From positions 8,849 through 72,848 of the IMG/VR virus record IMGVR_UViG_3300033150_001583: a DNA stretch of 64,000 nucleotides; one strand, given 5' to 3'. The notes below the pieces were generated by a model. It was given only the letters and a program-made list of their open reading frames with translations. It ran no database searches and had not been told where the DNA came from. Position 1 is the stretch's first letter. The number at the start of each line of letters is the position of its first letter. Shown in pieces: positions 4,060 through 56,580 of the stretch. The position numbers and the translations under genes were made by a program. This DNA comes from a virus.

Positions 4060-4750
4060 AAAACGGAGTTTTAAAGGAGAACTAAAAGTAAAATTGGGAT
4101 CTAGTTATAAGAAAACATACGATCATGTGCATGATTTTGCTTCTGCGTTTAGTAGTATTTCGTTATCTACAGTTATTTGGACTGCTGCTGCTCATTTGAG
4201 ACATAAAGTTTACGAAAATATACGTCGTGAACCTTTGGATTATGTGCGAACTGGTGGGTTTTTAAAGGCTGTTAGTGATGAGCGCGTTAAAAAGTTTAAA
4301 GTTAGTACTACTATTAAAGGAAAAAGAAGAATATTTACGTCTGGTGCTGGTTCTTTAGAAGTTTTAAATAAAGTTGTTCGTCCTAAAGAAACTGTTACTT
4401 TTGAAACTCCTAGTGGACAGCATAGAACTTTGTCTTTTAAGAAGGGCACGTTTCCAATCTGGATTATGGTTGAGTATGGTATTTTAAATAGGGGTGAGCA
4501 AGTTCCTAAAGAGTTCACTAAATATACTAAAAAGAAGACATCATTACCTTATCGTATGGTATTTGCGGGCTGGAATGTTAGCAATAATAAGCCAGTTATA
4601 TTCATGTCTAAGAATGTGCCTGTAAGTTATCCACATCACCCTGGCGTTAAAGGATCTGGAGCGTACAGGAGAGCCTTAAGAGAATTATATAAGGAAAGGT
4701 TTATAGAGAAATTAATTGATGAAACTATAGCAAGAAAATTAAAGGATTGA
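4049..4750 (+). CDS. Neck/tail completion protein (basic)
   Basis: Likely starts at the ATG of MPRKKRSF rather than 4016; synteny within the neck module. Confidence 0.45.
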   Translation: MPRKKRSFKGELKVKLGSSYKKTYDHVHDFASAFSSISLSTVIWTAAAHLRHKVYENIRREPLDYVRTGGFLKAVSDERVKKFKVSTTIKGKRRIFTSGAGSLEVLNKVVRPKETVTFETPSGQHRTLSFKKGTFPIWIMVEYGILNRGEQVPKEFTKYTKKKTSLPYRMVFAGWNVSNNKPVIFMSKNVPVSYPHHPGVKGSGAYRRALRELYKERFIEKLIDETIARKLKD

Positions 4751-5472: not shown

Positions 5473-7038
5473 ATGGTTAAGCCTGCAAGAGTACATTATT
5501 CTGGTACTGGCGTATTTGTTGACGATATCGACATGGATCGTGTTCAGGCTGTCGGGTCTTCGAGTAGGTACAACGATGAAGACCTTAAAGAATTGGGTAG
5601 CCTGAAGATTACTGAAGTTGTCGATGATGTTGAAGATATGGAGCTTACTCTTGATACTAATGAATATGGTTCCAATAAAACGCTCGCCAGTTTTGCCAAT
5701 AAAGGCTTTGGCTTAAGGGTTTTTGCTGTTCCCGATGGTTCTAACCCTGGTAGTGCTCAAATTAAGGTTGAAGAAGGTTCGTTTATTGTAAATGGTGTGA
5801 GGATTCCGTTTGCTGGGACAACTGTTCCTATTACTCCGCCTACTGCCGAGGATGCTGCTGTTGTTTCTATTAACACTGATCCCAATAACTTAACAGTTAG
5901 TATTACATTTAATGATGTTGGTAGTGAAAATCCAACAACTCCACCTCCTTGCCCTGCTGGAGAGGTAGAACTTGCTCATTTGCTCCATGTAGGAACAGAT
6001 GGAGTTGTTACGCAAGATAATATTGTTGACAAGAGAAGTTGGGCTACTATTGATATCCTTGATTTTGAGCTTGCTAAGGCTGATGTTTACATACCTGTTA
6101 TTCCATCTGGGGCATCTGAAATTCAGCGGACTTCTTACATGGAAAACGTATTTGTTAACAGAATTGACTTGAATTACACGGTTGACGGCGTAGCAACAGA
6201 AAATTATGGAGCTGAAACTGATAATAAAGTTTGGTACTTTAATGATTCCAAACATATAGTAGTTGATCAGTTTGAAGCTACTGGAGGCGAAACTAGCTAC
6301 GTCTTAAGTCGAACACCTACTCAACTTAAGAATGGCAAATATATGTTAAGGGCAATTTTGAATGGTAATGAAATGGAAGAGGGCACTGATTTTACTGTTG
6401 ATGCTGGTACTAACACTGTTACGTTTAGTGGTGTAACTTTAAGTGCTGGAGATCAAGTTAAGTTTAGATATACTTCTGGTAGCGGTGGAGTATTTCATGA
6501 TGACTCTGATGAAATGGTCTCTCTTGCTTATGAACATCCTGGCGGTGTTAAGGGAGGACATATCAAGGTATATCTTACTGAAAATGGTGTTGATAATGAG
6601 TTACTCAGGGTGCAGAGCGTGAGGATTTCTGCTTCTCTCACTAGAGAAGCCTTGAGACAGCTTTCTACAGTTAGACCTTATGAAAGACCGCTTAATATTC
6701 CTGTTGAAATTACATGTTCATTAGAGTTCACTGATAGTGACCTTGAGGTGTTAGCAAGGTTAGCTGGAGAAACTTATGATGCTAACGAGGGTGTTACTGG
6801 TACTAATTCAATTGATATTGGAAAGATACTTAAGGATAGAGGACTACTCGTTGAAATATATAGATTACATGATGAGCAGCGTGCGGAATTACCTGAAAAT
6901 CACCCGTTCCAATATCCTTTGAAGAAAGTGAGGATTCCATATTTAATTCCTACTGATGAGAATATGGAAGCGAGAGTTGATGCTAATAATACGCAAACAT
7001 TTGATTTTAGATCGCATAGGTTGCAGATAACTGCTTAA
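5473..7038 (+). CDS. Major tail (tube) protein with inserted accessory domains
   Basis: 521 aa, AAGGAGG RBS; 'RVQSVRISASLTRE.LRQL' tube-protein pattern; precedes the chaperones and tape measure. Confidence 0.7.
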   Translation: MVKPARVHYSGTGVFVDDIDMDRVQAVGSSSRYNDEDLKELGSLKITEVVDDVEDMELTLDTNEYGSNKTLASFANKGFGLRVFAVPDGSNPGSAQIKVEEGSFIVNGVRIPFAGTTVPITPPTAEDAAVVSINTDPNNLTVSITFNDVGSENPTTPPPCPAGEVELAHLLHVGTDGVVTQDNIVDKRSWATIDILDFELAKADVYIPVIPSGASEIQRTSYMENVFVNRIDLNYTVDGVATENYGAETDNKVWYFNDSKHIVVDQFEATGGETSYVLSRTPTQLKNGKYMLRAILNGNEMEEGTDFTVDAGTNTVTFSGVTLSAGDQVKFRYTSGSGGVFHDDSDEMVSLAYEHPGGVKGGHIKVYLTENGVDNELLRVQSVRISASLTREALRQLSTVRPYERPLNIPVEITCSLEFTDSDLEVLARLAGETYDANEGVTGTNSIDIGKILKDRGLLVEIYRLHDEQRAELPENHPFQYPLKKVRIPYLIPTDENMEARVDANNTQTFDFRSHRLQITA

Positions 7039-8472: not shown

Positions 8473-11400
8473 AGCCTATGAAACTCAATATATTGTTACT
8501 CTTTCAGCGGTTGATGAGAGTCTTTTAGAAACTTTAACAGGGCAAAATGGAGTATTAGGTGCTCTTAATCAAATTCAACAGAAAATAGAGCAAATTAATA
8601 AGACTCCTATTACTATACGGACTAAGATAGAAGATAAAGAGGCCAAGCCTTCTTCTGGTGGATCTTCTTCTGGAGGAACAGGAGGAATATCTTCTGGTGG
8701 CGGAAGGCCACCTAAACACAATAAGAGAAGTCTTGATACTGCGGAAGTAAATCAAGTAGCCGCCGCTTCAAAGAAGATTGCTAAAGGCTATAATGAACTA
8801 GCTGGGTCTATTGAAAAACTTAAGCAAGTAGGCAAGGTTTCTTTAGGAAAAGATTTAGGAATTACTGCTAAAACTATTGGAAGTCTTAGGGATTTAGGTG
8901 AAGCGTCTGGTAATGCTGGTACTGGTTTAGAAAAGGTTGCTAGTGCTCTTGAAGGCATTGGTCAGGCTAAAGGGTTTTCTGCGGTGAAAAATTTAGGGGC
9001 TAATTTAACAAATATTAGAAGAGTTGAAGGCTTGGGAGATGCTGCTATTCGTGCTGGCACTGGTTTAAATGAAATTGCCAATGCTCTCCAGCGGATGGGG
9101 GATGTAAAAAAAATTGGTCCAACAATTACTTATACCAATAAGCAAATTGGCAAGTTTATTTCTACTTTAAGACATTTAGATCAAAAAGGTACTAAGGCTT
9201 TAGTAGGACTTGAGACTAGACTTGCTTCTATACAACAAAGAATAAATGATACTATATCTAAAATAAATGCACTTTCGACTGTTGGTGCTAGTAAGCTTGA
9301 AGCATTTCAGCAAAGACAGACAAAAAGAAGTATTTCTCAAGAACAAAAGCAAGATCTTGAAAAAATTAAAGAAGCTACTTCTGCTCAGGCACAAGAATTG
9401 GAAAAACAGTATTTGAGTGCAATGCGTAATATCCAACGCCAGCGTTTTGGTAGGGCCATGACTATTGCTGATATGCTGGGTGTTAAGATTGATCCCAGGG
9501 ATTATCAGCACATGTTTGATTTTAATGTCCAGCTTCAAGCTGCTCGTGAACAAGTGCGGAAAATGTTGGAGCAGCATAAAAGGACTAAACAAAGCCTTTA
9601 TAGTGTTATTCCTCTCTATGACGAGATGGGCAATAAAGTATCTCAATTTGCTGTGATGGTTGATAGGGCTGGTAGAGTTATTTATAACTTTGACCGTGAT
9701 TTGATTCAATTGTTCCAGAATATGTTCTACAGGATGGGAGTTTGGGCTATAGCAACTGCTGGTGTTTATATGTTCATCAATGCTATCAAAGAAGCTATTC
9801 AGTATATGAAAGATCTTAGTAGACAACTTAAATTACTGGAGATTGCGGCAGGAGGACTTAATATTGGCGAAATTATAGAAGGTATAGGACGGCTTGTGTC
9901 TGAATATGGAGGGACGGTAGCTGAAGCTGTTGATATTACATACCAGTTTGTAAAAGTTCTTCGCGATGAAGAAAAAGCCTTGGAAGCTACTAAGTTGGCT
10001 TTAATGGCATATAATATTTCTGGTTTGGAGTACGATGAATCTGCCGAGTTATTGATTGGTGTAATGAACCAATATAATTTGTCAATTCGAGAAGCTAGAG
10101 ATTTGATGGATGCTTGGGCGGTTGCTTCTCGTAAGGGTACTGTTGACTTTAAAGAATTAGCGGAGGCATTTAATAAATCTGCTGTTGCCGCCAATGAACT
10201 AGGTATTAGCTATAAAGAACTGACGGCAATGATTGAGGCAGTAGGAACTGCTAGTGGTGAAAGTGGTAAAGAAATAGGTAACTTTGTGAAGTTTATATTG
10301 GAACATGCTAGAGATTTAGAGACTTTATATGCTGTTCAAGAAGTAGCTGGCGTTCCTGTATTTACTGAAACTGGTGAGTATAGAAGTACTTTTGATGTAC
10401 TTGTTGATTTAGGAAAAGCCTGGAAAGATCTTAGTGATGATCAAAGAAATTATGTTAAGACTGCTTGGGCAAGTTATCGTCAGGGTGCTAGGTTTAAAGC
10501 TTTAATGGAGGCTACCAGTCGAGACATAGAAGAATTTGGTTCTACTTTAGGTATATTGAAAGAGATACATGAAGGTTATGGTGAGGCAGCTTATCAGAAT
10601 GCTTTAGTTCTCAATACTTTGCAGGGTGCCTTCCAAAAGTTGCAAGGTGTTTATACTACTTTTGTTCAAAGTTTTACTGATAGTGGTTTGGCACAACTTA
10701 TTAAATTTGCAGTGAAGGGACTTTATACTTTACTTGATTTGTTCAATAAAACTGATGATGCAGGCACGCACTTCCTTAGTTTGATAAGTGCTATTATTAC
10801 TAGAATTGCTATAATGGCAAGACAGGGGATGGGTACTCTTGCCCGTTCCATAGGTGAATTTAAGGATGCAATGAATAGTTTTGCACGGGCACAAGAGGTT
10901 GCTGGCACTCAAGGAGCTGCTGCTCAAGAAAAGATACGCAGTGAGATCGGTGTTACAAATACTGCTTTAAATCATCAGATAGCTTTAGTAGATCGGTTGA
11001 TTGCTGGCTACAGAAGATTGTTTGGTACTGAAGTTCCTCAGACTGTGAAGGAGGCTACGAAAGATACCGAGAAAATAATACCGAGTAGGGTTTTTTCACC
11101 TAAGACTCCAGTGACACCTAGACAGCCAGTTGATTTAAGTTATATTCCTTCTCCTCGTAAAACGACTCCATCAGGGATTATAGTCCCTGGAGGAATTTCG
11201 CGCGATTTTGTTACTAGTTATGACCGAAAGTTTAATATGGGTTTAATAGGTAGAGTACAAGATAGAATTAGTAAATTTTCTAATGCTATTAGGAGTAGTT
11301 TAGATGGTATTATTGTCTCTATGAGGAATCTTGGGAATAAGATACCTGCTACTTTAAGGAAGATAGATGACAGCTTTGCCAAGGCATTAAGGAGTAGCAA

Positions 11401-47464: not shown

Positions 47465-48838
47465 TTGAGGCTCCCTTCTGAACTCAGGCAGAAAATGGAT
47501 GAGATTTCCGATGTAGCTTCTGAAAGGTCTGTTCTTTCTATATTGATAAACCATCCAGACCTTTATTATGACATTTTTTCTGAGGTTAATGTGGATTACT
47601 TTTCTAATTCTCAAAACAGAGAAATTTATAAGCTTATTTATAGTTATTTATCTAATAAGAAAGGGCTTTACAAGATTAATACTTATATTCTCTCTGATTT
47701 AGCCAAAAAACATGGTATTTTAGAAAAAATCGGGGGTAGAGATTATTTAAAAGCACTTGAAGATGTTAATAGTCCTAAAGAAAATTTGAGATTTTATCTT
47801 GATCAGTTGAAGTTTTATTATGTCCGCCGCCAAATTTTTGTTAAAGGATATGAGATACAGGAAGAAGCCTTAAACACTGAAACAAATGACTTAGATAAAT
47901 TTTTGGCGGAACAAGAAAGCAAACTAGTTGATATTTCATTAAAAACAAAGTATGGAGATGGTGTAGAAAACTTACTAGAAGATTTTGATACCCTTCTTGA
48001 AGAAAGAACCAAAAATCCAGGAGAAGTCTATGGTATCCCTACCCCTTTTAAAGAATTTAATAGGGCTACAGGCGGTCTTGTGGGTAATAGGCTTTATGTA
48101 ATTGGTGCTCGTTCGAAGAACTTTAAATCAGGGACGCTGATGAATATAGCCGTTTATGTTGCTAAGAATGTGGGTAATGTTCTTCTTCTTGATACTGAGT
48201 TAGATAAAAAACTTCAGCAGATACGTTTGTTGGCTATTTCTTCTGGCGTGCCTGAAAAAATGATTCAAAATGGTACTTTTATCAATGTTAAAAAATATCG
48301 GGAAGCTATAGAAAAAACCAAAAAATTTTTGCGGGGTAAAAAATTATTCCATAAGCACATACCTGTTTTCACTACTGATGAAATTGAGTACTTGGCACGA
48401 AAATACTACTTAAGAGAAAATATTAAACTGCTTGTTTTTGATTATATTAAAGAACCCGAAGACGATAATAAATATCGTTCTAAAAGAGAAAAACTTGGCG
48501 ATGTAACCATGAAACTTAAAGCTATATCTGCAAAATTAAATATACCTGTATTGACTGCTGTGCAGCTTAATAGGTTAGCTATTGACCAAAAAACCCTTGG
48601 TGAGGGCCATGTAGCTGAGTCTGATTTGATATTACAGAATGCAGACTACCTATTTTTTCAACGTTGGAAGACTGAAGAAGAACGCGAAGAGGAAGAGGGC
48701 AATTTTATTATCCAAGCTGGCCCTTCTCGATTTGGTTGCGAATATGAAGGGTGGTTCAATATTTATTCTTCTTTAAGAATGGAGGAATTAGGTAATTTCT
48801 ATATGGGTGAAAGTAAAGTGCTTGAAGAAGAATTCTAA
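47465..48838 (+). CDS. dnaB: Replicative helicase (DnaB family)
   Basis: 'E.SVLS.L', Walker A 'GARSKNFKS', 'LLVFDYIK', 'AVQLNR', 'ESD.I.Q.AD'. Confidence 0.9.
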   Translation: MRLPSELRQKMDEISDVASERSVLSILINHPDLYYDIFSEVNVDYFSNSQNREIYKLIYSYLSNKKGLYKINTYILSDLAKKHGILEKIGGRDYLKALEDVNSPKENLRFYLDQLKFYYVRRQIFVKGYEIQEEALNTETNDLDKFLAEQESKLVDISLKTKYGDGVENLLEDFDTLLEERTKNPGEVYGIPTPFKEFNRATGGLVGNRLYVIGARSKNFKSGTLMNIAVYVAKNVGNVLLLDTELDKKLQQIRLLAISSGVPEKMIQNGTFINVKKYREAIEKTKKFLRGKKLFHKHIPVFTTDEIEYLARKYYLRENIKLLVFDYIKEPEDDNKYRSKREKLGDVTMKLKAISAKLNIPVLTAVQLNRLAIDQKTLGEGHVAESDLILQNADYLFFQRWKTEEEREEEEGNFIIQAGPSRFGCEYEGWFNIYSSLRMEELGNFYMGESKVLEEEF

Positions 48839-48865
48839 AAAAATTTCGCGGGTATAAAAGGAGGA

Positions 48866-49081
48866 ATGATTATGAGAGATTTAATGATTGGCTTTATAGC
48901 ATTAGTAATAGTTTTGTTGTTGGATAGTTTATTGGTGATGCTGTGTTGGAATGAACTACTTCCCTATCTTTTTGGTTTGCCCAAAATAAGTTTTTTAAAG
49001 TCTATGGTTTTGGTTATATTATGCAATATTTTATTCAAGAGGAGAATGTTAGAATCTGATTCAAATAAAAATAAAAATTAA
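48866..49081 (+). CDS. Small membrane protein
   Basis: Two hydrophobic segments; AGGAGG RBS. Confidence 0.6.
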   Translation: MIMRDLMIGFIALVIVLLLDSLLVMLCWNELLPYLFGLPKISFLKSMVLVILCNILFKRRMLESDSNKNKN

Positions 49082-49094
49082 CTTTAAATTATAC

Positions 49095-49122
49095 TTGACA
49101 CTAGATATACAGTTGCTATAAT
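49095..49122 (+). promoter_or_regulatory. sigmaA promoter upstream of cas12f
   Basis: TTGACA (49095)-16 nt-TATAAT (49117) with extended -10 TG; same architecture as the 44269 promoter. Confidence 0.8.
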
Positions 49123-49230
49123 TAGAGTTGCGAAAATGATATGGAATAGACTTTAAGTAATATGTAAATGGAATTCATTTTGGGGTTTTGCTAGGGGGCG
49201 GTAAGGATTAGTAAGGAAATCACGCAATGC

Positions 49231-50457
49231 GTGGGTGCGGTGATTAAGAGACCTTTAGATGTCGAATGGGAAGAATTTGGTAAAGTATTACATGATTTAA
49301 GGTTTAAGACCGTACTTGCCTGTAATTATACCATACAACTCTATTGGGAGTGGGATAAAGAAAAGTTTAAATATAAGGAAGAATACGGCAATTTTCCAAG
49401 TGAAAAAGATGTTTTCGGAATGACTTTTAGAAATTATGTTTATCATAAGTTGAGAGAAAAATTTTCAGAAGTAAGTTCAGCTAATATATCACAGATACAG
49501 CAAGCTGCAATGAAGTTGTGGAAGAAAGAATTGCCAGAAATTCGAAAATTAAAGGCTTCTGTTCCAAGTGTTAAGTTGGGTTATCCTATACTTGTATATA
49601 ATAAAAACTATGAAATTAGAAGAAATAAAGAAGGTAGATTTGTAGTTAAATTGACTTTATATAGCAAAGAGAAAGAAAAAACGAGATTTGAAATTCTTTT
49701 AGATAAGCTGGATAAGTCTAAAAAAGCCATATTAGATAGAATTATATCGGGTGAATATAAACAAGGCGTATTACAAATAAGACAAATAAAAAAAAAGAAG
49801 AAAAAGAAATGGATGTGTATCTTTTCTTATTCCTTTGTTCCAGATAAGAGACATGAATTTATTAAGGATAGAGTAATGGGAATTGATTTAGGTATTAATT
49901 ATACTGCCTATTGTGCTCTTAATGATGATCCTAAGCCGAGATATCCTTATAAAGGGGGTGAGATTAAAGAGTTTAATAGAAGATTGAAAAAGAGAAAAAT
50001 TAGCATTCAGAAATCAGGCGGGAAAACAGGACATGGCCGAAAGCGCAAATTACTTCCTGTGGAAATTTTTTCAGGGCGGATAAAAAATTATAGAAACACA
50101 ATAAATCATAAGATAGCTAAACGAATAGTTGATAAAGCTTTAAAATTCAAGGTAGCTAAAATTCATTTAGAAGACTTATCTGAGATAGGTGAAGACACAG
50201 GTAATACTTCATTCTTTTTAGAAAACTGGCCTTATTATGATTTACAGCAAAAAATAAAGTATAAAGCCGAAAGAGAAGGTATTGAGGTGTGTTTCATAGA
50301 CCCTAAAAATACTTCTATTAAATGTTCGAAATGTGGATATATAGACAAAGAAAATAGAGATAAAGAGAAATTCAAGTGTAAGAAATGTGGTTTTGAGGCT
50401 CATGCTGATTATAATGCTGCTAGAAATATAGCTATGAGTGTTGATTATGTGAGTTAA
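49231..50457 (+). CDS. cas12f: Cas12f (type V-F) / TnpB-superfamily RNA-guided nuclease
   Basis: RuvC-I MGIDLG, RuvC-II IHLEDL, Zn finger CSKC/CKKC, RuvC-III HADYNAARNI. N-terminus 'IKRPLDVEWEEFGKVLHDL' resembles AsCas12f1 as recalled. Adjacent tracr-like RNA and array. The true start may be upstream, e.g. ATT at 49207. Confidence 0.85.
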   Translation: MGAVIKRPLDVEWEEFGKVLHDLRFKTVLACNYTIQLYWEWDKEKFKYKEEYGNFPSEKDVFGMTFRNYVYHKLREKFSEVSSANISQIQQAAMKLWKKELPEIRKLKASVPSVKLGYPILVYNKNYEIRRNKEGRFVVKLTLYSKEKEKTRFEILLDKLDKSKKAILDRIISGEYKQGVLQIRQIKKKKKKKWMCIFSYSFVPDKRHEFIKDRVMGIDLGINYTAYCALNDDPKPRYPYKGGEIKEFNRRLKKRKISIQKSGGKTGHGRKRKLLPVEIFSGRIKNYRNTINHKIAKRIVDKALKFKVAKIHLEDLSEIGEDTGNTSFFLENWPYYDLQQKIKYKAEREGIEVCFIDPKNTSIKCSKCGYIDKENRDKEKFKCKKCGFEAHADYNAARNIAMSVDYVS

Positions 50458-50460
50458 AAT

Positions 50461-50615
50461 TAAATACCAGGGCGATTTCACGTCCTGAAGGTGAGAAGTG
50501 TCATATCCTTGCAGTGACATGATAACGCTCACCAAGCCTAAAAAATCCCTTGCTATACGAGGCGCAGGGGCACCCTAATACTAATACAGATTGACGACAT
50601 TTTTTGTTGTTTTGA
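50461..50615 (+). ncRNA. tracrRNA-like structured RNA (copy 1)
   Basis: Stems GGGCG/CGTCC, GTGAG/CTCAC, CCCTTGC/GCAGGGG; CACCC complementary to GGGTG of the repeat; terminal hairpin plus U-tract; a second diverged copy at 56313 shows covariation. Confidence 0.8.
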
Positions 50616-50654
50616 GGATTTATAATCCTTGAGAATACTAGATTTCGAAATGGG

Positions 50655-50863
50655 GTTTCTAATAAGGCTATATCGGGTGGAAACGCGGCCAGCTTGAACC
50701 AACCATCAGTCAATGCTAGAGTTTCTAATAAGGCTATATCGGGTGGAAACGTAGAAGTGGCAGATGAGTGGGACATAGTACAGATTGGTTTCTAATAAGG
50801 TTATGTTGGGTGGAAACAGCAATGTTGTTGATTAAATAGAGTTCGTTTATGTGGGGTGGAAGC
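50655..50863 (+). CRISPR. Mini CRISPR array: three 30-bp repeats plus one truncated repeat
   Basis: GTTTCTAATAAGGCTATATCGGGTGGAAAC at 50655 and 50721 (identical) and 50788 (3 mismatches); spacers of 36 and 37 bp; degenerate 3' half-repeat at 50847-50863. Confidence 0.92.
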
Positions 50864-50948
50864 AACAGACAATAGAACAAAATATAGATGTAGTTAAAGT
50901 ATTTCTGAAGAAATTATACAGGATGGGAACATGTGGTGAGGCAGAAAA

Positions 50949-52037
50949 ATGTCAAAAAGAAGACATTTTTTAGAAATAAAGCAGATAATAGAACAAAATA
51001 TAGACGTAGTTAAAGTTTTGGAGTTTTATGGCGCAAGAAAAATTAAAAAATTTCCATCTGGCATACGTTGTTGCTGTCCATTGCACGATGGTGATAACTA
51101 CACGTCTTTTTATTTTAATACAGACACCATGACGTGGTATTGTTTTTCACGAAATTGCGGGGAAGGTATATCTAAAGACATTTTCGGCTTTGTCTATCTC
51201 GCGCAGAAAAAAATCGCAGGGAAAAGAGCAACATTAAAAGACGTAATATCAATTTTGCTTTCATTCTGCAATATCAATATAACCCTTGATGAAATAGATT
51301 TCTCCTATAACAAAGAACTTTACGACGCAGTAGACAATACTAACTTTATTAAAACAGTTAAATCGGATAAAGATACACACATTGATTTAGAAACGCTTAA
51401 TTATGATACTATTGCTCCTTTTTATAAAGAAGAACCATCGTACCTGTATACAAGAGGATACAGTAGAAAAATTATAAGTGTGTTTTCTATAGGTTTTTCT
51501 AGATACGGCATTAATGAAAAACACAAAATTAAAGATGATTTTCCAGGCAGAGTTATAGTTCCCGTGGAGCATTTAGATAATTCTTTAGTTGGTCTAAGTG
51601 GAAGACTTGCTACTGACAACAAAGAATTAATTAATAAATACGGCAAATACAGACATTTAGTTGACTTTCAAAAAGGGGCCGTACTCTATAATTTAAATCG
51701 AGCTTTGCCTTATATCAAGAGAGAGAAAAGTGTTATTTTTGTAGAAGGTTTTTTTGATGTGATGAGACTCTATACTTTTAGAGTAAGAAATGTAGTATCA
51801 CTGATGGGAACCTCCCTAACTAAATATCAAAGAAGCTTAATATTACCCTATGTTGAGAATGTATATCTTATGTTAGATTCTGATGAAGGAGGTGAGAAAG
51901 GAACTAAAAGAGTTGCGAAACAGTTAAAGGGATTGTGCAATATCTATCGTATTCCTCTTCCCTGCGGGAAAGACCCTGATGACTTATCTTTAAAAGAATT
52001 TTGGTTGAGTTTTGGAAGGGCAAAAAAAATAGTTTAA
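50949..52037 (+). CDS. dnaG: DNA primase (CHC2 zinc finger plus Toprim)
   Basis: 'CCCPLHDG...WYCFS..C', 'FPGRVIVP', 'FVEGFFDV', 'LMLDSDEGG', 'GKDPD'. Confidence 0.9.
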   Translation: MSKRRHFLEIKQIIEQNIDVVKVLEFYGARKIKKFPSGIRCCCPLHDGDNYTSFYFNTDTMTWYCFSRNCGEGISKDIFGFVYLAQKKIAGKRATLKDVISILLSFCNINITLDEIDFSYNKELYDAVDNTNFIKTVKSDKDTHIDLETLNYDTIAPFYKEEPSYLYTRGYSRKIISVFSIGFSRYGINEKHKIKDDFPGRVIVPVEHLDNSLVGLSGRLATDNKELINKYGKYRHLVDFQKGAVLYNLNRALPYIKREKSVIFVEGFFDVMRLYTFRVRNVVSLMGTSLTKYQRSLILPYVENVYLMLDSDEGGEKGTKRVAKQLKGLCNIYRIPLPCGKDPDDLSLKEFWLSFGRAKKIV

Positions 52038-52432: not shown

Positions 52433-53728
52433 GTGCCTATAGCTGAAGAAACTTTGTTAGTGACTAGAAAGGGCATACTCCCTTTTTCTGCTTTTATTAA
52501 AGATAAACAACATAGGAGAGATATTTTATATCCTGTTGGGCGAGATATGTTTATCAGAGCTTTAAATAATTATGAGACTACATTTGAGGGATACCTGTTT
52601 TTTGGCAAAGGAGAAGCTATCAGAATAACAACATTAACTGGTTATTCTGTTATTGCTTCTCCTGATCAAAGGGTAAGAATTGTTAATTCTACTGGAAATT
52701 ATAGCTGGAGGCGCATGGAAAGTTTACAGGGTGGCGATTGGGTTGTCTTACAGATGAATTCTTATCCTGATTATGTTGATGATTTTTCACCGACTTTGTT
52801 AAAAGAGCCTTTAGATGATGAAGACATGGTTTTGCCTACAAGATTAACACAAGAGTTGGCAGAGTGGCTTGGATATTTTTTATTCAGGGGGATTCTTTTT
52901 TACCCCGAAAAAGATAAAAAGGCTCAAATTGGGTTTATATATAGCAACGAAAAAATAAAAAATTATCTGATAGGTTTAACGGCAAAACTTTTTGGGATAA
53001 GTGATTATGAGAAAATAGAAGGATTGGGTCTTCATAGTGCAGGTGCATTTGGTTATCAGTCCAATACACTGTTTAAGTGGCTGATTAGCGTTGGGTTATT
53101 AGGTTCTGAAGGTATTCCTCAAATTCCCTCTCTCATTTTTCGCGGGGGAAGAAAGATGATATATCCATTTTTGAGGGGAGCTTTTTCAGCCTGTTGTTTA
53201 GTAGAAGAATTGAAAAATAAGAGAGTTATTAAGTTGTATTCTCCTTATATTGACTTGATTCGAGAATTACAGATACTCTTACTTTCAATTGGTATTCCAA
53301 CAATAATAAATACTTCTATTCAGGATTCTGATTACTTATTTACTCTATATGTAATAACTAAAAAGGGACTTAAGAACTTTAGAGACAATATTGGTTTTTT
53401 TGATTCGCCTTTAAGCAATGCTTTAGAGGAGATAAATTTACTCAATTATGCACCAGAGAAAAAAATCGGGGGGCTAAGAGAAATATATGAGGAAGACCCT
53501 AAAAACTTAAAGAGTAGAAGCCAAACCGATATACTTAGGATTAAAAGGTTATTCACAGATGTAAGAGTGATGACACTTTCTAAAACATTAATTTGTGAAG
53601 TATTTAATGAGAATCATCTGTATGACCAAGTAATTTCAATCGAAAAAACCAAAGCAAAGCTTTATGAACCGAGATTAATTGGCAAAAGAAGCTTTGTGGG
53701 TAATGGATTTGTATTTTTTGTTGAGTAA
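52433..53728 (+). CDS. Free-standing intein-like protein (Hint-N, LAGLIDADG, Hint-C) with degenerate catalytic motifs
   Basis: Block A-like 'PIAEETLLVTRKG', block B-like 'VIASPDQRV', LAGLIDADG-like 'LAEWLGYFLFRG' and 'FLRGAFSACC', block F/G-like 'LYEPRLIGKRSFVGNGFVFF'; no extein on either side. Confidence 0.75.
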   Translation: MPIAEETLLVTRKGILPFSAFIKDKQHRRDILYPVGRDMFIRALNNYETTFEGYLFFGKGEAIRITTLTGYSVIASPDQRVRIVNSTGNYSWRRMESLQGGDWVVLQMNSYPDYVDDFSPTLLKEPLDDEDMVLPTRLTQELAEWLGYFLFRGILFYPEKDKKAQIGFIYSNEKIKNYLIGLTAKLFGISDYEKIEGLGLHSAGAFGYQSNTLFKWLISVGLLGSEGIPQIPSLIFRGGRKMIYPFLRGAFSACCLVEELKNKRVIKLYSPYIDLIRELQILLLSIGIPTIINTSIQDSDYLFTLYVITKKGLKNFRDNIGFFDSPLSNALEEINLLNYAPEKKIGGLREIYEEDPKNLKSRSQTDILRIKRLFTDVRVMTLSKTLICEVFNENHLYDQVISIEKTKAKLYEPRLIGKRSFVGNGFVFFVE

Positions 53729-56289: not shown

Positions 56290-56312
56290 GGAGGTGATGA
56301 GCAATAGATAAT

Positions 56313-56470
56313 TAGATACTAGGGCGATTCCGCGTCCTAAAAGTGAGAAGTGCTATATCCTTACAATGGTATAGTGGCACTCACTAAGCCTTAAAAATCC
56401 TTCGCTATGCGAGGCGCGAAGGCATTCCACATTATTAAAAATCGACGACATTTTTTGTTGTTTTGGAAGT
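56313..56470 (+). ncRNA. Second, orphan tracrRNA-like copy
   Basis: Colinear with 50461-50615 along its length, with conserved stems and compensatory changes; no cas gene adjacent. Confidence 0.8.
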
Positions 56471-56504
56471 TTGTGAACCTTGAAAATAGCTAACTTCATG
56501 GTGG

Positions 56505-56535
56505 GTTCTGGAGTAAACTATGTGGAATGGGAAAT
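56505..56535 (+). CRISPR. Solitary diverged CRISPR repeat followed by a putative guide
   Basis: GTTCTGGAGTAAACTATGTGGAATGGGAAAT sits at the position equivalent to repeat 1 of the main array; its ATGTGGAATG pairs with CATTCCACAT in the copy-2 tracr. Confidence 0.65.
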
Positions 56536-56580
56536 GGTTATTAATTGGAATACATTTGAATTCTATTAGGAGGGGTTTGA

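Follow-up and report, generated by a model that had tools for sequence, protein, structure and literature searches.

The 64,000-nucleotide stretch analysed here (positions 8,849 to 72,848 of the IMG/VR virus record IMGVR_UViG_3300033150_001583; referred to below as the window) carries a compact module of the CRISPR type, centred on a gene for a miniature nuclease, Cas12f. The module lies within a cassette of ~1.85 kb flanked by genes for a DnaB-type helicase (47465-48838) and a DnaG-type primase (50949-52037; Pfam Toprim, DNAG_N and CHC2 finger), both on the plus strand, as are all the long open reading frames (ORFs) and all features described below unless otherwise indicated. Reading from left to right, it comprises a promoter, cas12f, a predicted trans-activating CRISPR RNA (tracrRNA), a short leader and a short repeat–spacer array. 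An initial annotation, made from the letters of the sequence, had described a phage-encoded minimal type V-F system. That description is upheld by the homology of the nuclease to AsCas12f1, by a tracrRNA of the As type with a covarying anti-repeat and by the absence of a TnpA transposase. The record itself is a virus genome of 139,584 bp with direct terminal repeats, an estimated completeness of 100% and phage hallmark genes including those for a major head protein, a tail protein, a DNA polymerase and the anaerobic ribonucleotide reductase NrdD, so the claim that the system is phage-encoded also stands; its carrier is a virulent-looking, 140-kb, Bacillota-type phage. We put the probability that the phage carries, as cargo, a working type V-F1 CRISPR interference module at about 80% on the strength of the sequence analyses described below.

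The nuclease gene, its promoter and its start codon

The cas12f gene (49207..50457) encodes 416 amino acids if translated from an ATT codon at 49207, or 408 from a GTG at 49231, and on sequence grounds belongs to type V-F1 (the AsCas12f1 clade, formerly V-U3). When the protein was compared with the Protein Data Bank using phmmer, the best matches were all AsCas12f1 chains (8J3R, 8J1J, 8J12, 7WJU and 8DZJ; E 5e-91 to 2e-88), with 41% identity to the solved protein across residues 5-402. These chains scored 300-309 bits against 138 bits for a solved IS200/IS605 TnpB; the other solved Cas12f proteins, like TnpB, scored far lower than AsCas12f1. Among profiles, the protein matched NCBIfam guided_TnpB (1.2e-53) and Pfam Cas12f1-like_TNB (6e-23). 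NCBIfam thus places it in a generic guided-TnpB subfamily, but the equivalogs IS200_TnpB and IS607_TnpB are rejected, with scores far below their cut-offs. This profile comparison had been proposed as a check in the initial annotation, and on the scores the protein is nearer to characterised Cas12f1 than to transposon TnpB.

The RuvC motifs GIDLG, (H)LEDL and ADYN align with GIDLG, MEDL/LEDL and ADYNAARNIA of AsCas12f1, leaving the D/E/D catalytic triad intact, and both CxxC pairs of the CSKCG...CKKCG zinc finger align with the zinc residues of that protein. Triad and zinc finger are also conserved in an alignment of 22 sequences (A3), and an AlphaFold2 model built on 22 homologues has a mean pLDDT (predicted local distance difference test score) of 84. 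The protein therefore has the tri-split RuvC domain and C-terminal TNB zinc finger of a miniature type V-F1 effector, and the earlier description of an intact nuclease of roughly 410 amino acids holds. Inside the gene, a run of nine A residues (49788-49796) encodes part of a KKKKKKK stretch, the equivalent K/R-rich stretch being shorter in the homologues; such a run might allow slippage and thereby switch off the nuclease.

Upstream of the gene lies a promoter with the structure TTGACA-16 nt-TGcTATAAT (49095..49122), an extended -10 arrangement with an upstream TG; in line with the consensus promoter first proposed, it matches sigma-70/A at 12 of 12 positions. It is the sole full-consensus site in the interval 48700-51100 and is predicted to drive cas12f. 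Where translation begins is less straightforward. The reading frame is open from 49195, following an in-frame TAG at 49192-94, and homologues start 8-13 residues ahead of a conserved I-I-K-P motif. The frame upstream of the GTG reads ISKEITQCVGAVIKRPL and aligns with the N-terminus of the homologues (for example, MSQKPITQAVKLQIIKPL), and in the AlphaFold2 model the first predicted beta strand begins 3 residues upstream of the GTG-encoded valine, such that a start at GTG 49231 would clip it. Sequence and predicted fold together support a start upstream of the GTG. No ATG, GTG or TTG is present between the TAG and 49231, and the best candidate is probably ATT 49207, which is preceded, 8 nt upstream, by a putative Shine–Dalgarno-like box, AGGGGG (49193..49198). 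The non-canonical start suggested in the initial annotation is thus backed by homology and fold as far as an upstream start is concerned, but its choice of ATT 49207 has a possible rival in ATC 49219.

The tracrRNA, the array and two orphan units

Over the 200 nt immediately 3' of the cas12f stop codon, the sequence is conserved among the nearest homologous loci. A tracrRNA is predicted here at 50468..50615 on the basis of homology to the tracr regions of 10 related loci, covariation and folding. An alignment of 13 sequences, including the AsCas12f locus (L026) and the phage's own three copies (see below), yields a consensus of three helices in which 16 of the 22 base pairs display compensatory changes on both sides. 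Stem 1 (50468-50487) is followed by a GGUGAG...CUCACC stem around the GAGAAGUG hairpin (50490-50533) and by stem 3 (50547-50570); the anti-repeat begins directly after stem 3 with CACCC (50571-50575), and a terminator-like hairpin at 50593-50611 leads into a U run ending at 50615. The minimum free energy fold of the single sequence gives the same stems (z = -2.7) and adds the hairpin and U-run terminator (50593-50615). The initial annotation had noted a resemblance to the AsCas12f1 tracr in the segment GAGAAGTG...TAACGCTC, which is located at 50493-50530. The resemblance is borne out by alignment with the tracr region at the genuine AsCas12f locus, that of Sulfoacidibacillus thermotolerans, with which the phage RNA has the element GAGAAGUG...UAAC(G/A)CUC in common.

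In every locus examined, the anti-repeat pairs with positions ~17-26 of the repeat, and it co-varies with the repeat across 9 loci. The pairing is CACCC with GGGUG in the main unit of the phage, CAUUCCACAU with AUGUGGAAUG in its orphan unit B, CAACCCU with AGGGUUG in locus L005 and CAUCAUACA with UGUAUGAUG in L019, the duplex being longer in the As locus. A global RNAduplex comparison of tracr and repeat produced scattered pairing only and was superseded by this position-restricted, covariation-checked assignment. By its sequence, the downstream RNA is a tracrRNA rather than a cis omega RNA, situated between gene and array with a complementary anti-repeat, as in type V-F1. Between it and the array lies a leader (50616..50654, defined by nhmmer alignment of the three units) that is identical to positions 130525-130488 (minus strand) of the genome, within orphan unit C, whereas the tracr bodies of the two units differ at ~10% of positions. 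This identity points to gene conversion or strong constraint, and the leader may serve as a promoter for the CRISPR RNAs (crRNAs) or form part of a fused transcript.

The array (50655-50930) is the only one in the genome, lies on the same strand as the gene and has repeats of the family found with type V-F1 nucleases. Its intact part (50655..50817) comprises three 30-nt repeats and two spacers: repeat 1 (50655-84), spacer 1 (50685-720; 36 nt), repeat 2 (50721-50), spacer 2 (50751-87; 37 nt) and repeat 3 (50788-817), the last with 3 substitutions, in agreement with the 30-bp repeats and 36-37-bp spacers originally reported. The array is, however, longer than first described, with two more decayed units, one of which has a spacer matching the primase gene. 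A truncated spacer 3 (50818-47) is followed by the 3' 16 nt of repeat 4, TATGTGGGGTGGAAGC (50848-63), which retain the GGGTG that pairs with the anti-repeat, then by spacer 4 (50864..50899) and a degenerate terminal repeat 5 (50900..50930). Repeat 5 was recognised by gapped alignment to the repeat and is weak on its own, but it keeps to the register of the array, 66 nt on from that of repeat 4, and the local alignment scores of both repeats are at or above the 99th percentile of the window background. Because the spacing of repeat 4 to repeat 3 is 20 nt short, we infer a deletion. A 40-amino acid ORF at 50851-50973 is an artefact of read-through across repeat 4 and spacer 4.

The repeats are members of the 29-30-nt GTTT...GAAR family of AsCas12f-clade arrays and resemble those of L005, L008, L019/20, L026 and L061. 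The initial annotation had likened them to type I-B repeats and on this ground looked to the host for spacer acquisition. Since they are of the same family as the repeats of Cas12f relatives, that likeness is superficial, and since they also pair with the phage's own tracrRNA, no host CRISPR system need be invoked. A host Cas1–Cas2 might acquire the spacers, but none of the observations favours this.

The reported absence of cas1 and cas2 from the window was borne out and extends to the whole 139,584-bp genome, in which there is also no TnpA (Y1 transposase); a Cas4-like PD-(D/E)xK match ~13 kb downstream is weak and below cut-off. The absence of an adaptation module is a trait of V-U3 systems, which lack adaptation proteins and interfere with double-stranded DNA (Karvelis et al., PMC7229846), and nearly all phage CRISPR loci are without adaptation genes (Al-Shayeb et al., PMC7162821): most lack Cas1, Cas2 and Cas4, their arrays are short and their targets are other phages (PMC7162821, PMC11656645). 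Of 86 related loci (L005-L100), none has a Cas1-like gene in flanking sequence of up to 8 kb, yet most of the loci carry arrays of 2-37 repeats, and 12 of the 25 bacterial genomes that carry relatives (G001-G025) have no Cas1 at all. A layout without spacer-acquisition genes is the norm of this Cas12f clade.

Two further copies of the tracrRNA, each with one repeat and a fixed guide, are found elsewhere in the phage genome. Orphan unit B (56311..56570; nhmmer E 2.9e-28) lies directly 3' of nrdD, with its repeat at 56505-34 and its guide at 56535-70. Orphan unit C is outside the window, at genome positions 130675-130420 on the minus strand (nhmmer E 8.5e-51). In unit B the anti-repeat and repeat form a perfect 10-bp duplex, both sides of which have changed relative to the main unit. 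From their sequences, the three tracrRNA paralogues appear to serve one nuclease, and their retention in one genome with compensatory changes argues for selection. Rfam and transfer RNA scans of the window returned no matches.

The spacers, the relatives and the phage setting

Spacer 4, the trailer spacer and the oldest guide of the array, is 36 nt long and identical at 33 of 36 positions to the phage's own primase gene. The protospacer-like site (50980..51015; codons 11-23) lies 116 nt downstream of the spacer and 31 nt into the gene, has the 5' flank ATAA and is the only near-match of this spacer in the genome. The match opens at the first base after repeat 4 and closes at the start of repeat 5, and thus the spacer slot is filled exactly. 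Spacer and site differ at position 2 (synonymous), position 7 (Ile/Thr) and position 26 (synonymous); the mainly synonymous pattern fits an origin of the spacer as a copy of a homologous primase allele from a related phage. It suggests that related phages are targeted, possibly in a homing-like way. The resident site is probably not attacked: the two mismatches in the seed (positions 2 and 7) would spare it, as would the ATAA flank if the protospacer adjacent motif (PAM) is TTR-like. That the match might be the scar, in the form of a 38-nt duplication, of an insertion into the primase gene was considered but rejected, as the primase N-terminus is complete and aligns with its homologues, and the match does not extend beyond the spacer slot.

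We also asked how common such matches are. Near-full-length matches in cis were found in 2 of 50 related arrays (401 spacers in all), too few for them to be a trait of the family. One is spacer 4 and the other is in L021, a contig of a Fermentithermobacillaceae metagenome-assembled genome, where the trailer spacer (4488-4527) is identical at 39 of 40 positions to the ribosome-binding site and start (2307-2345) of a small gene that heads the contig's own cas12f operon. The 5' flank of that site, TTTG, fits a PAM of the AsCas12f type. Like spacer 4 of the phage, the L021 spacer is the last ahead of a degenerate repeat, and its match could reflect autoregulation or be a self-targeting spacer.

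Spacers 1 and 2 have G+C contents of 53% and 46%, compared with 34% for the phage, and match nothing in the phage genome itself. A spacer search of the kind recommended in the initial annotation was carried out: exact 24-25-nt halves of the two spacers matched nothing in IMG/VR, and blastn comparison of the whole array with INPHARED phages and PLSDB plasmids gave matches at chance level only (E ~1).

The proteins closest to the phage Cas12f are 47-48% identical to it. The bacterial genomes that carry relatives are nearly all from Bacillota, and the nearest homologues are mostly in phage or prophage contexts with the same gene–tracr–array order. One, with three repeats in its array, is part of a phage tail module (L008), another of a phage nucleotide-metabolism module (L018), and two directly follow prophage holin–endolysin genes (L019 and L020, one of them in Thermaerobacillus caldiproteolyticus), while L005 and L017 are beside restriction-modification genes, Apyc1-like genes or a serine recombinase. 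Among the seven nearest relatives examined, six have short arrays (L005, L008, L017, L019, L020 and L021) and none has cas1. In L018, a different layout is seen within the same clade, with a three-repeat array (5784-5942) upstream of the 447-amino acid Cas12f-like gene; no tracr-like motif was found downstream of that gene.

In four further relatives at 40-43% identity (P0015, P0017, P0020 and P0024 in alignment A3), all three RuvC acidic positions are replaced, with GVNFASG for GIDLG, RLADVSG for MEDL and NMEYNTA for NADYNAA, and the zinc-finger spacer is longer. From these sequences they look like nuclease-dead Cas12f derivatives and may possibly act as RNA-guided repressors.

How the cassette sits in the phage genome can be judged from the nearest phage relative available, whose primase is 46% identical and in which only 3 nt separate the helicase and primase genes. 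Because the two genes are adjacent in that phage, the material between them here is an insertion. Its first 250 nt encode a 71-amino acid membrane protein of a common phage family, and the CRISPR cassette proper begins with the promoter at 49095. Between the helicase stop codon and the membrane-protein gene, at 48841-48852, is AAATTTCGCGGG, a copy of a dispersed, strand-biased motif of this genome, which suggests that the membrane-protein gene is under phage-type control, whereas the cas12f promoter is of host type. The G+C content of the cassette is that of the phage (34%), and the cassette is therefore likely to be a long-term resident that has been kept intact. Two genes downstream of the primase, a free-standing ORF of 431 amino acids (52433-53728) has LAGLIDADG_3 and weak intein-splicing matches; it is a homing-element remnant in the same replication module as the cassette.

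Close relatives of the phage or the cassette were sought in several collections. Protein patterns matched nothing in IMG/VR, megablast of a 6-kb segment against INPHARED found nothing, and the tracr core pattern had no match in IMG/VR or the JGI metagenomes. The nearest relatives of the primase are no more than 47% identical.

Interference, homing and other readings

Taken as an interference module, the cassette would work as follows. Sequence, homology, RNA covariation and the absence of cas1, cas2 and tnpA provide the basis, from which we infer expression, dimer formation, PAM use, cleavage and targets. The consensus promoter at 49095 would be read by host RNA polymerase early in infection, and the resulting mRNA translated into Cas12f, probably from the weak non-canonical ATT at 49207. 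The 3' untranslated part of this mRNA, or a separate transcript, would supply the ~150-nt tracrRNA, and the array would give rise to crRNAs consisting of the 3' half of a repeat and a spacer. GGGUG and neighbouring bases in the crRNA would pair with the anti-repeat directly after tracr stem 3 and, by analogy with AsCas12f1, a Cas12f dimer loaded with the two RNAs would cut PAM-flanked double-stranded DNA matching the spacer. The spacers would be fixed, the phage and its clade relatives being without an adaptation module. The likely use would be the destruction of competing DNA in the infected cell, with spacer 4 pointing to related phages.

Several observations weigh against this reading. Spacers 1 and 2 have no target in IMG/VR, INPHARED or PLSDB, and no exact target of spacer 4 was found in the JGI metagenomes. 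Every other anti-repeat duplex compared is stronger than that of the main unit (5 bp and a few A–U pairs, -9.8 kcal/mol), two of the five repeats are decayed and spacer 3 is truncated. The conserved N-terminus of the nuclease is preceded by no canonical start codon, and expression of Cas12f may consequently be low or the protein truncated.

The closest known parallel is the AsCas12f1 system of Acidibacillus sulfuroxidans / Sulfoacidibacillus thermotolerans. The two have in common (in addition to 41% identity and the RuvC and zinc motifs) the locus order gene, tracrRNA, array; a homologous tracrRNA with a GAGAAGUG...UAACGCUC hairpin stem and an anti-repeat at the corresponding position; 29-30-nt repeats opening with GTTT; and a lack of adjacent cas1 and cas2 (PMC7229846). 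That system, however, sits on a bacterial chromosome, and the one described here in a complete phage genome. The phage protein is somewhat shorter (408/416 amino acids compared with 422) and its array has 4 spacers, against 19 repeats in the As locus. The phage system further differs in its probable non-canonical start, its two extra orphan units and its shorter anti-repeat duplex. With the CRISPR systems of huge phages (V-U, V-F and Cas-phi; PMC7162821) and viral mini-arrays (PMC11656645) it shares a short array, the absence of an adaptation module, intact effector catalytic residues and at least one spacer directed towards a core gene of a related phage. Classical viral mini-arrays borrow a host effector, whereas this phage encodes its own nuclease and tracrRNA. 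Its genome of 140 kb is below the 'huge phage' range and, in contrast to those phage systems, the gene matched is the immediate neighbour of the array.

It is this proximity that invites a reading of the cassette as an RNA-guided homing element or gene drive. The crRNA carrying spacer 4 would cut the 5' end of the primase gene of cassette-free relatives during co-infection, and recombinational repair would copy the cassette, lying next to the site at a distance of 50-116 nt, into the rival; its polymorphisms would protect the resident primase. Such a role would refine the interference reading rather than exclude it. The protospacer lies in the gene flanking the insertion point, 31 nt inside it and 116 nt from the spacer; by our estimate, a random spacer from a 140-kb relative would fall within ~150 nt with a chance of ~0.2%, and near-full-length cis matches occur in only 2 arrays among the 401 spacers of the 50 arrays. 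Repeat 4 retains the 3' half that pairs with the anti-repeat, the mainly synonymous differences are those expected of a related phage's allele, the LAGLIDADG/intein-like ORF indicates that homing elements visit this replication module, and TnpB, the ancestor family, acts as a homing nuclease (PMC10690162). T4-like free-standing homing endonucleases and homing TnpB (PMC10690162, PMC13565253) likewise have a nuclease gene between conserved replication genes, a recognised sequence in the adjacent gene and a resident copy that is polymorphic at the site, but recognition here is proposed to be by an array crRNA, rather than by protein or a transposon-end guide. Against the homing reading, this is a single case: the collections searched hold no cassette-free or close relative, other phage-borne relatives have no such cis match, and spacer 4, lying among decayed repeats, could be an inert relic. 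We regard homing as rather unlikely, and it is equally doubtful that the cassette is a CRISPR-based analogue of free-standing homing endonucleases, with the orphan units widening the reach of the cassette.

The same decay could mean that the whole cassette was acquired as a moron and has fallen into disuse, its array eroding and its nuclease poorly or not translated. Repeats 4 and 5 have degenerated, spacer 3 has lost part of its length, there are 3 substitutions in repeat 3, the conserved N-terminus lacks an ATG, GTG or TTG, and no spacer targets were found in the collections searched. Degenerate terminal repeats are, however, normal in live arrays, and the 1.25-kb ORF is uninterrupted with all its catalytic and zinc residues, the promoter fits the consensus perfectly, all tracr stems are preserved, the two extra tracr–guide units have been kept with compensatory changes and the G+C content is that of a long-term resident kept intact; we consider this explanation unlikely. 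Still less probable is that partially matched guides (spacer 4 and the orphan guides) steer Cas12f to repress phage or host genes, in the manner of regulatory mini-arrays or TldR-type repressors. A partial match beside the array with degenerate repeats around it is the signature of regulatory mini-arrays (PMC10120712), and an edge spacer with these features is shared both with them and with the delocalised atypical crRNAs of CRISPR-associated transposons (PMC11656645). In the primase ORF, the guide would anneal to the template strand near the beginning, there are nuclease-dead proteins among the relatives at 40-43% identity and the L021 spacer matches the start of its own operon at 39 of 40 positions. 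In the phage, by contrast, the target is in the neighbouring ORF, not the cas promoter, there is no transposase, and the effector is nuclease-competent by its intact RuvC triad; judging from published Cas12f behaviour, mismatches 2 and 7 in the PAM-proximal seed and an ATAA flank that is not T-rich like the AsCas12f PAM make binding to the resident primase doubtful. Finally, the highest-scoring generic models are of the TnpB family (NCBIfam guided_TnpB and the PHROG 'transposase'), as would be expected if the protein were an IS200/IS605- or IS607-type TnpB with a cis omega RNA and the repeats incidental. The scores for IS200_TnpB (50 bits against a cut-off of 425) and IS607_TnpB (42 against 350) speak against this, as do the closest solved relatives, which are CRISPR Cas12f1 proteins. 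There is no Y1 transposase in the genome, the guides are spacers between repeats, and the separate tracrRNA with its anti-repeat and the periodic repeat–spacer array are conserved in relatives. The lack of TnpA and the separate tracrRNA rule this out in practice, and we give it hardly any weight.

Phage-encoded V-U/V-F systems without adaptation genes are already known and AsCas12f1 is well characterised. What is noteworthy in the present system lies in its details: the probable non-canonical start, the three tracrRNA paralogues and a trailer spacer that matches the primase gene next to it. As an interference module, it adds a natural AsCas12f-clade nuclease of 408-416 amino acids, with tracrRNA and repeat defined in silico, to the candidates for compact editors, and it shows an adaptation-less Cas12f clade travelling as phage and prophage cargo. 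The position of spacer 4 beside its target and the three tracrRNA paralogues bear on the question of whether phage CRISPR systems serve for inter-phage exclusion or for homing, and raise a second, namely how arrays without Cas1 and Cas2 obtain or keep their spacers.

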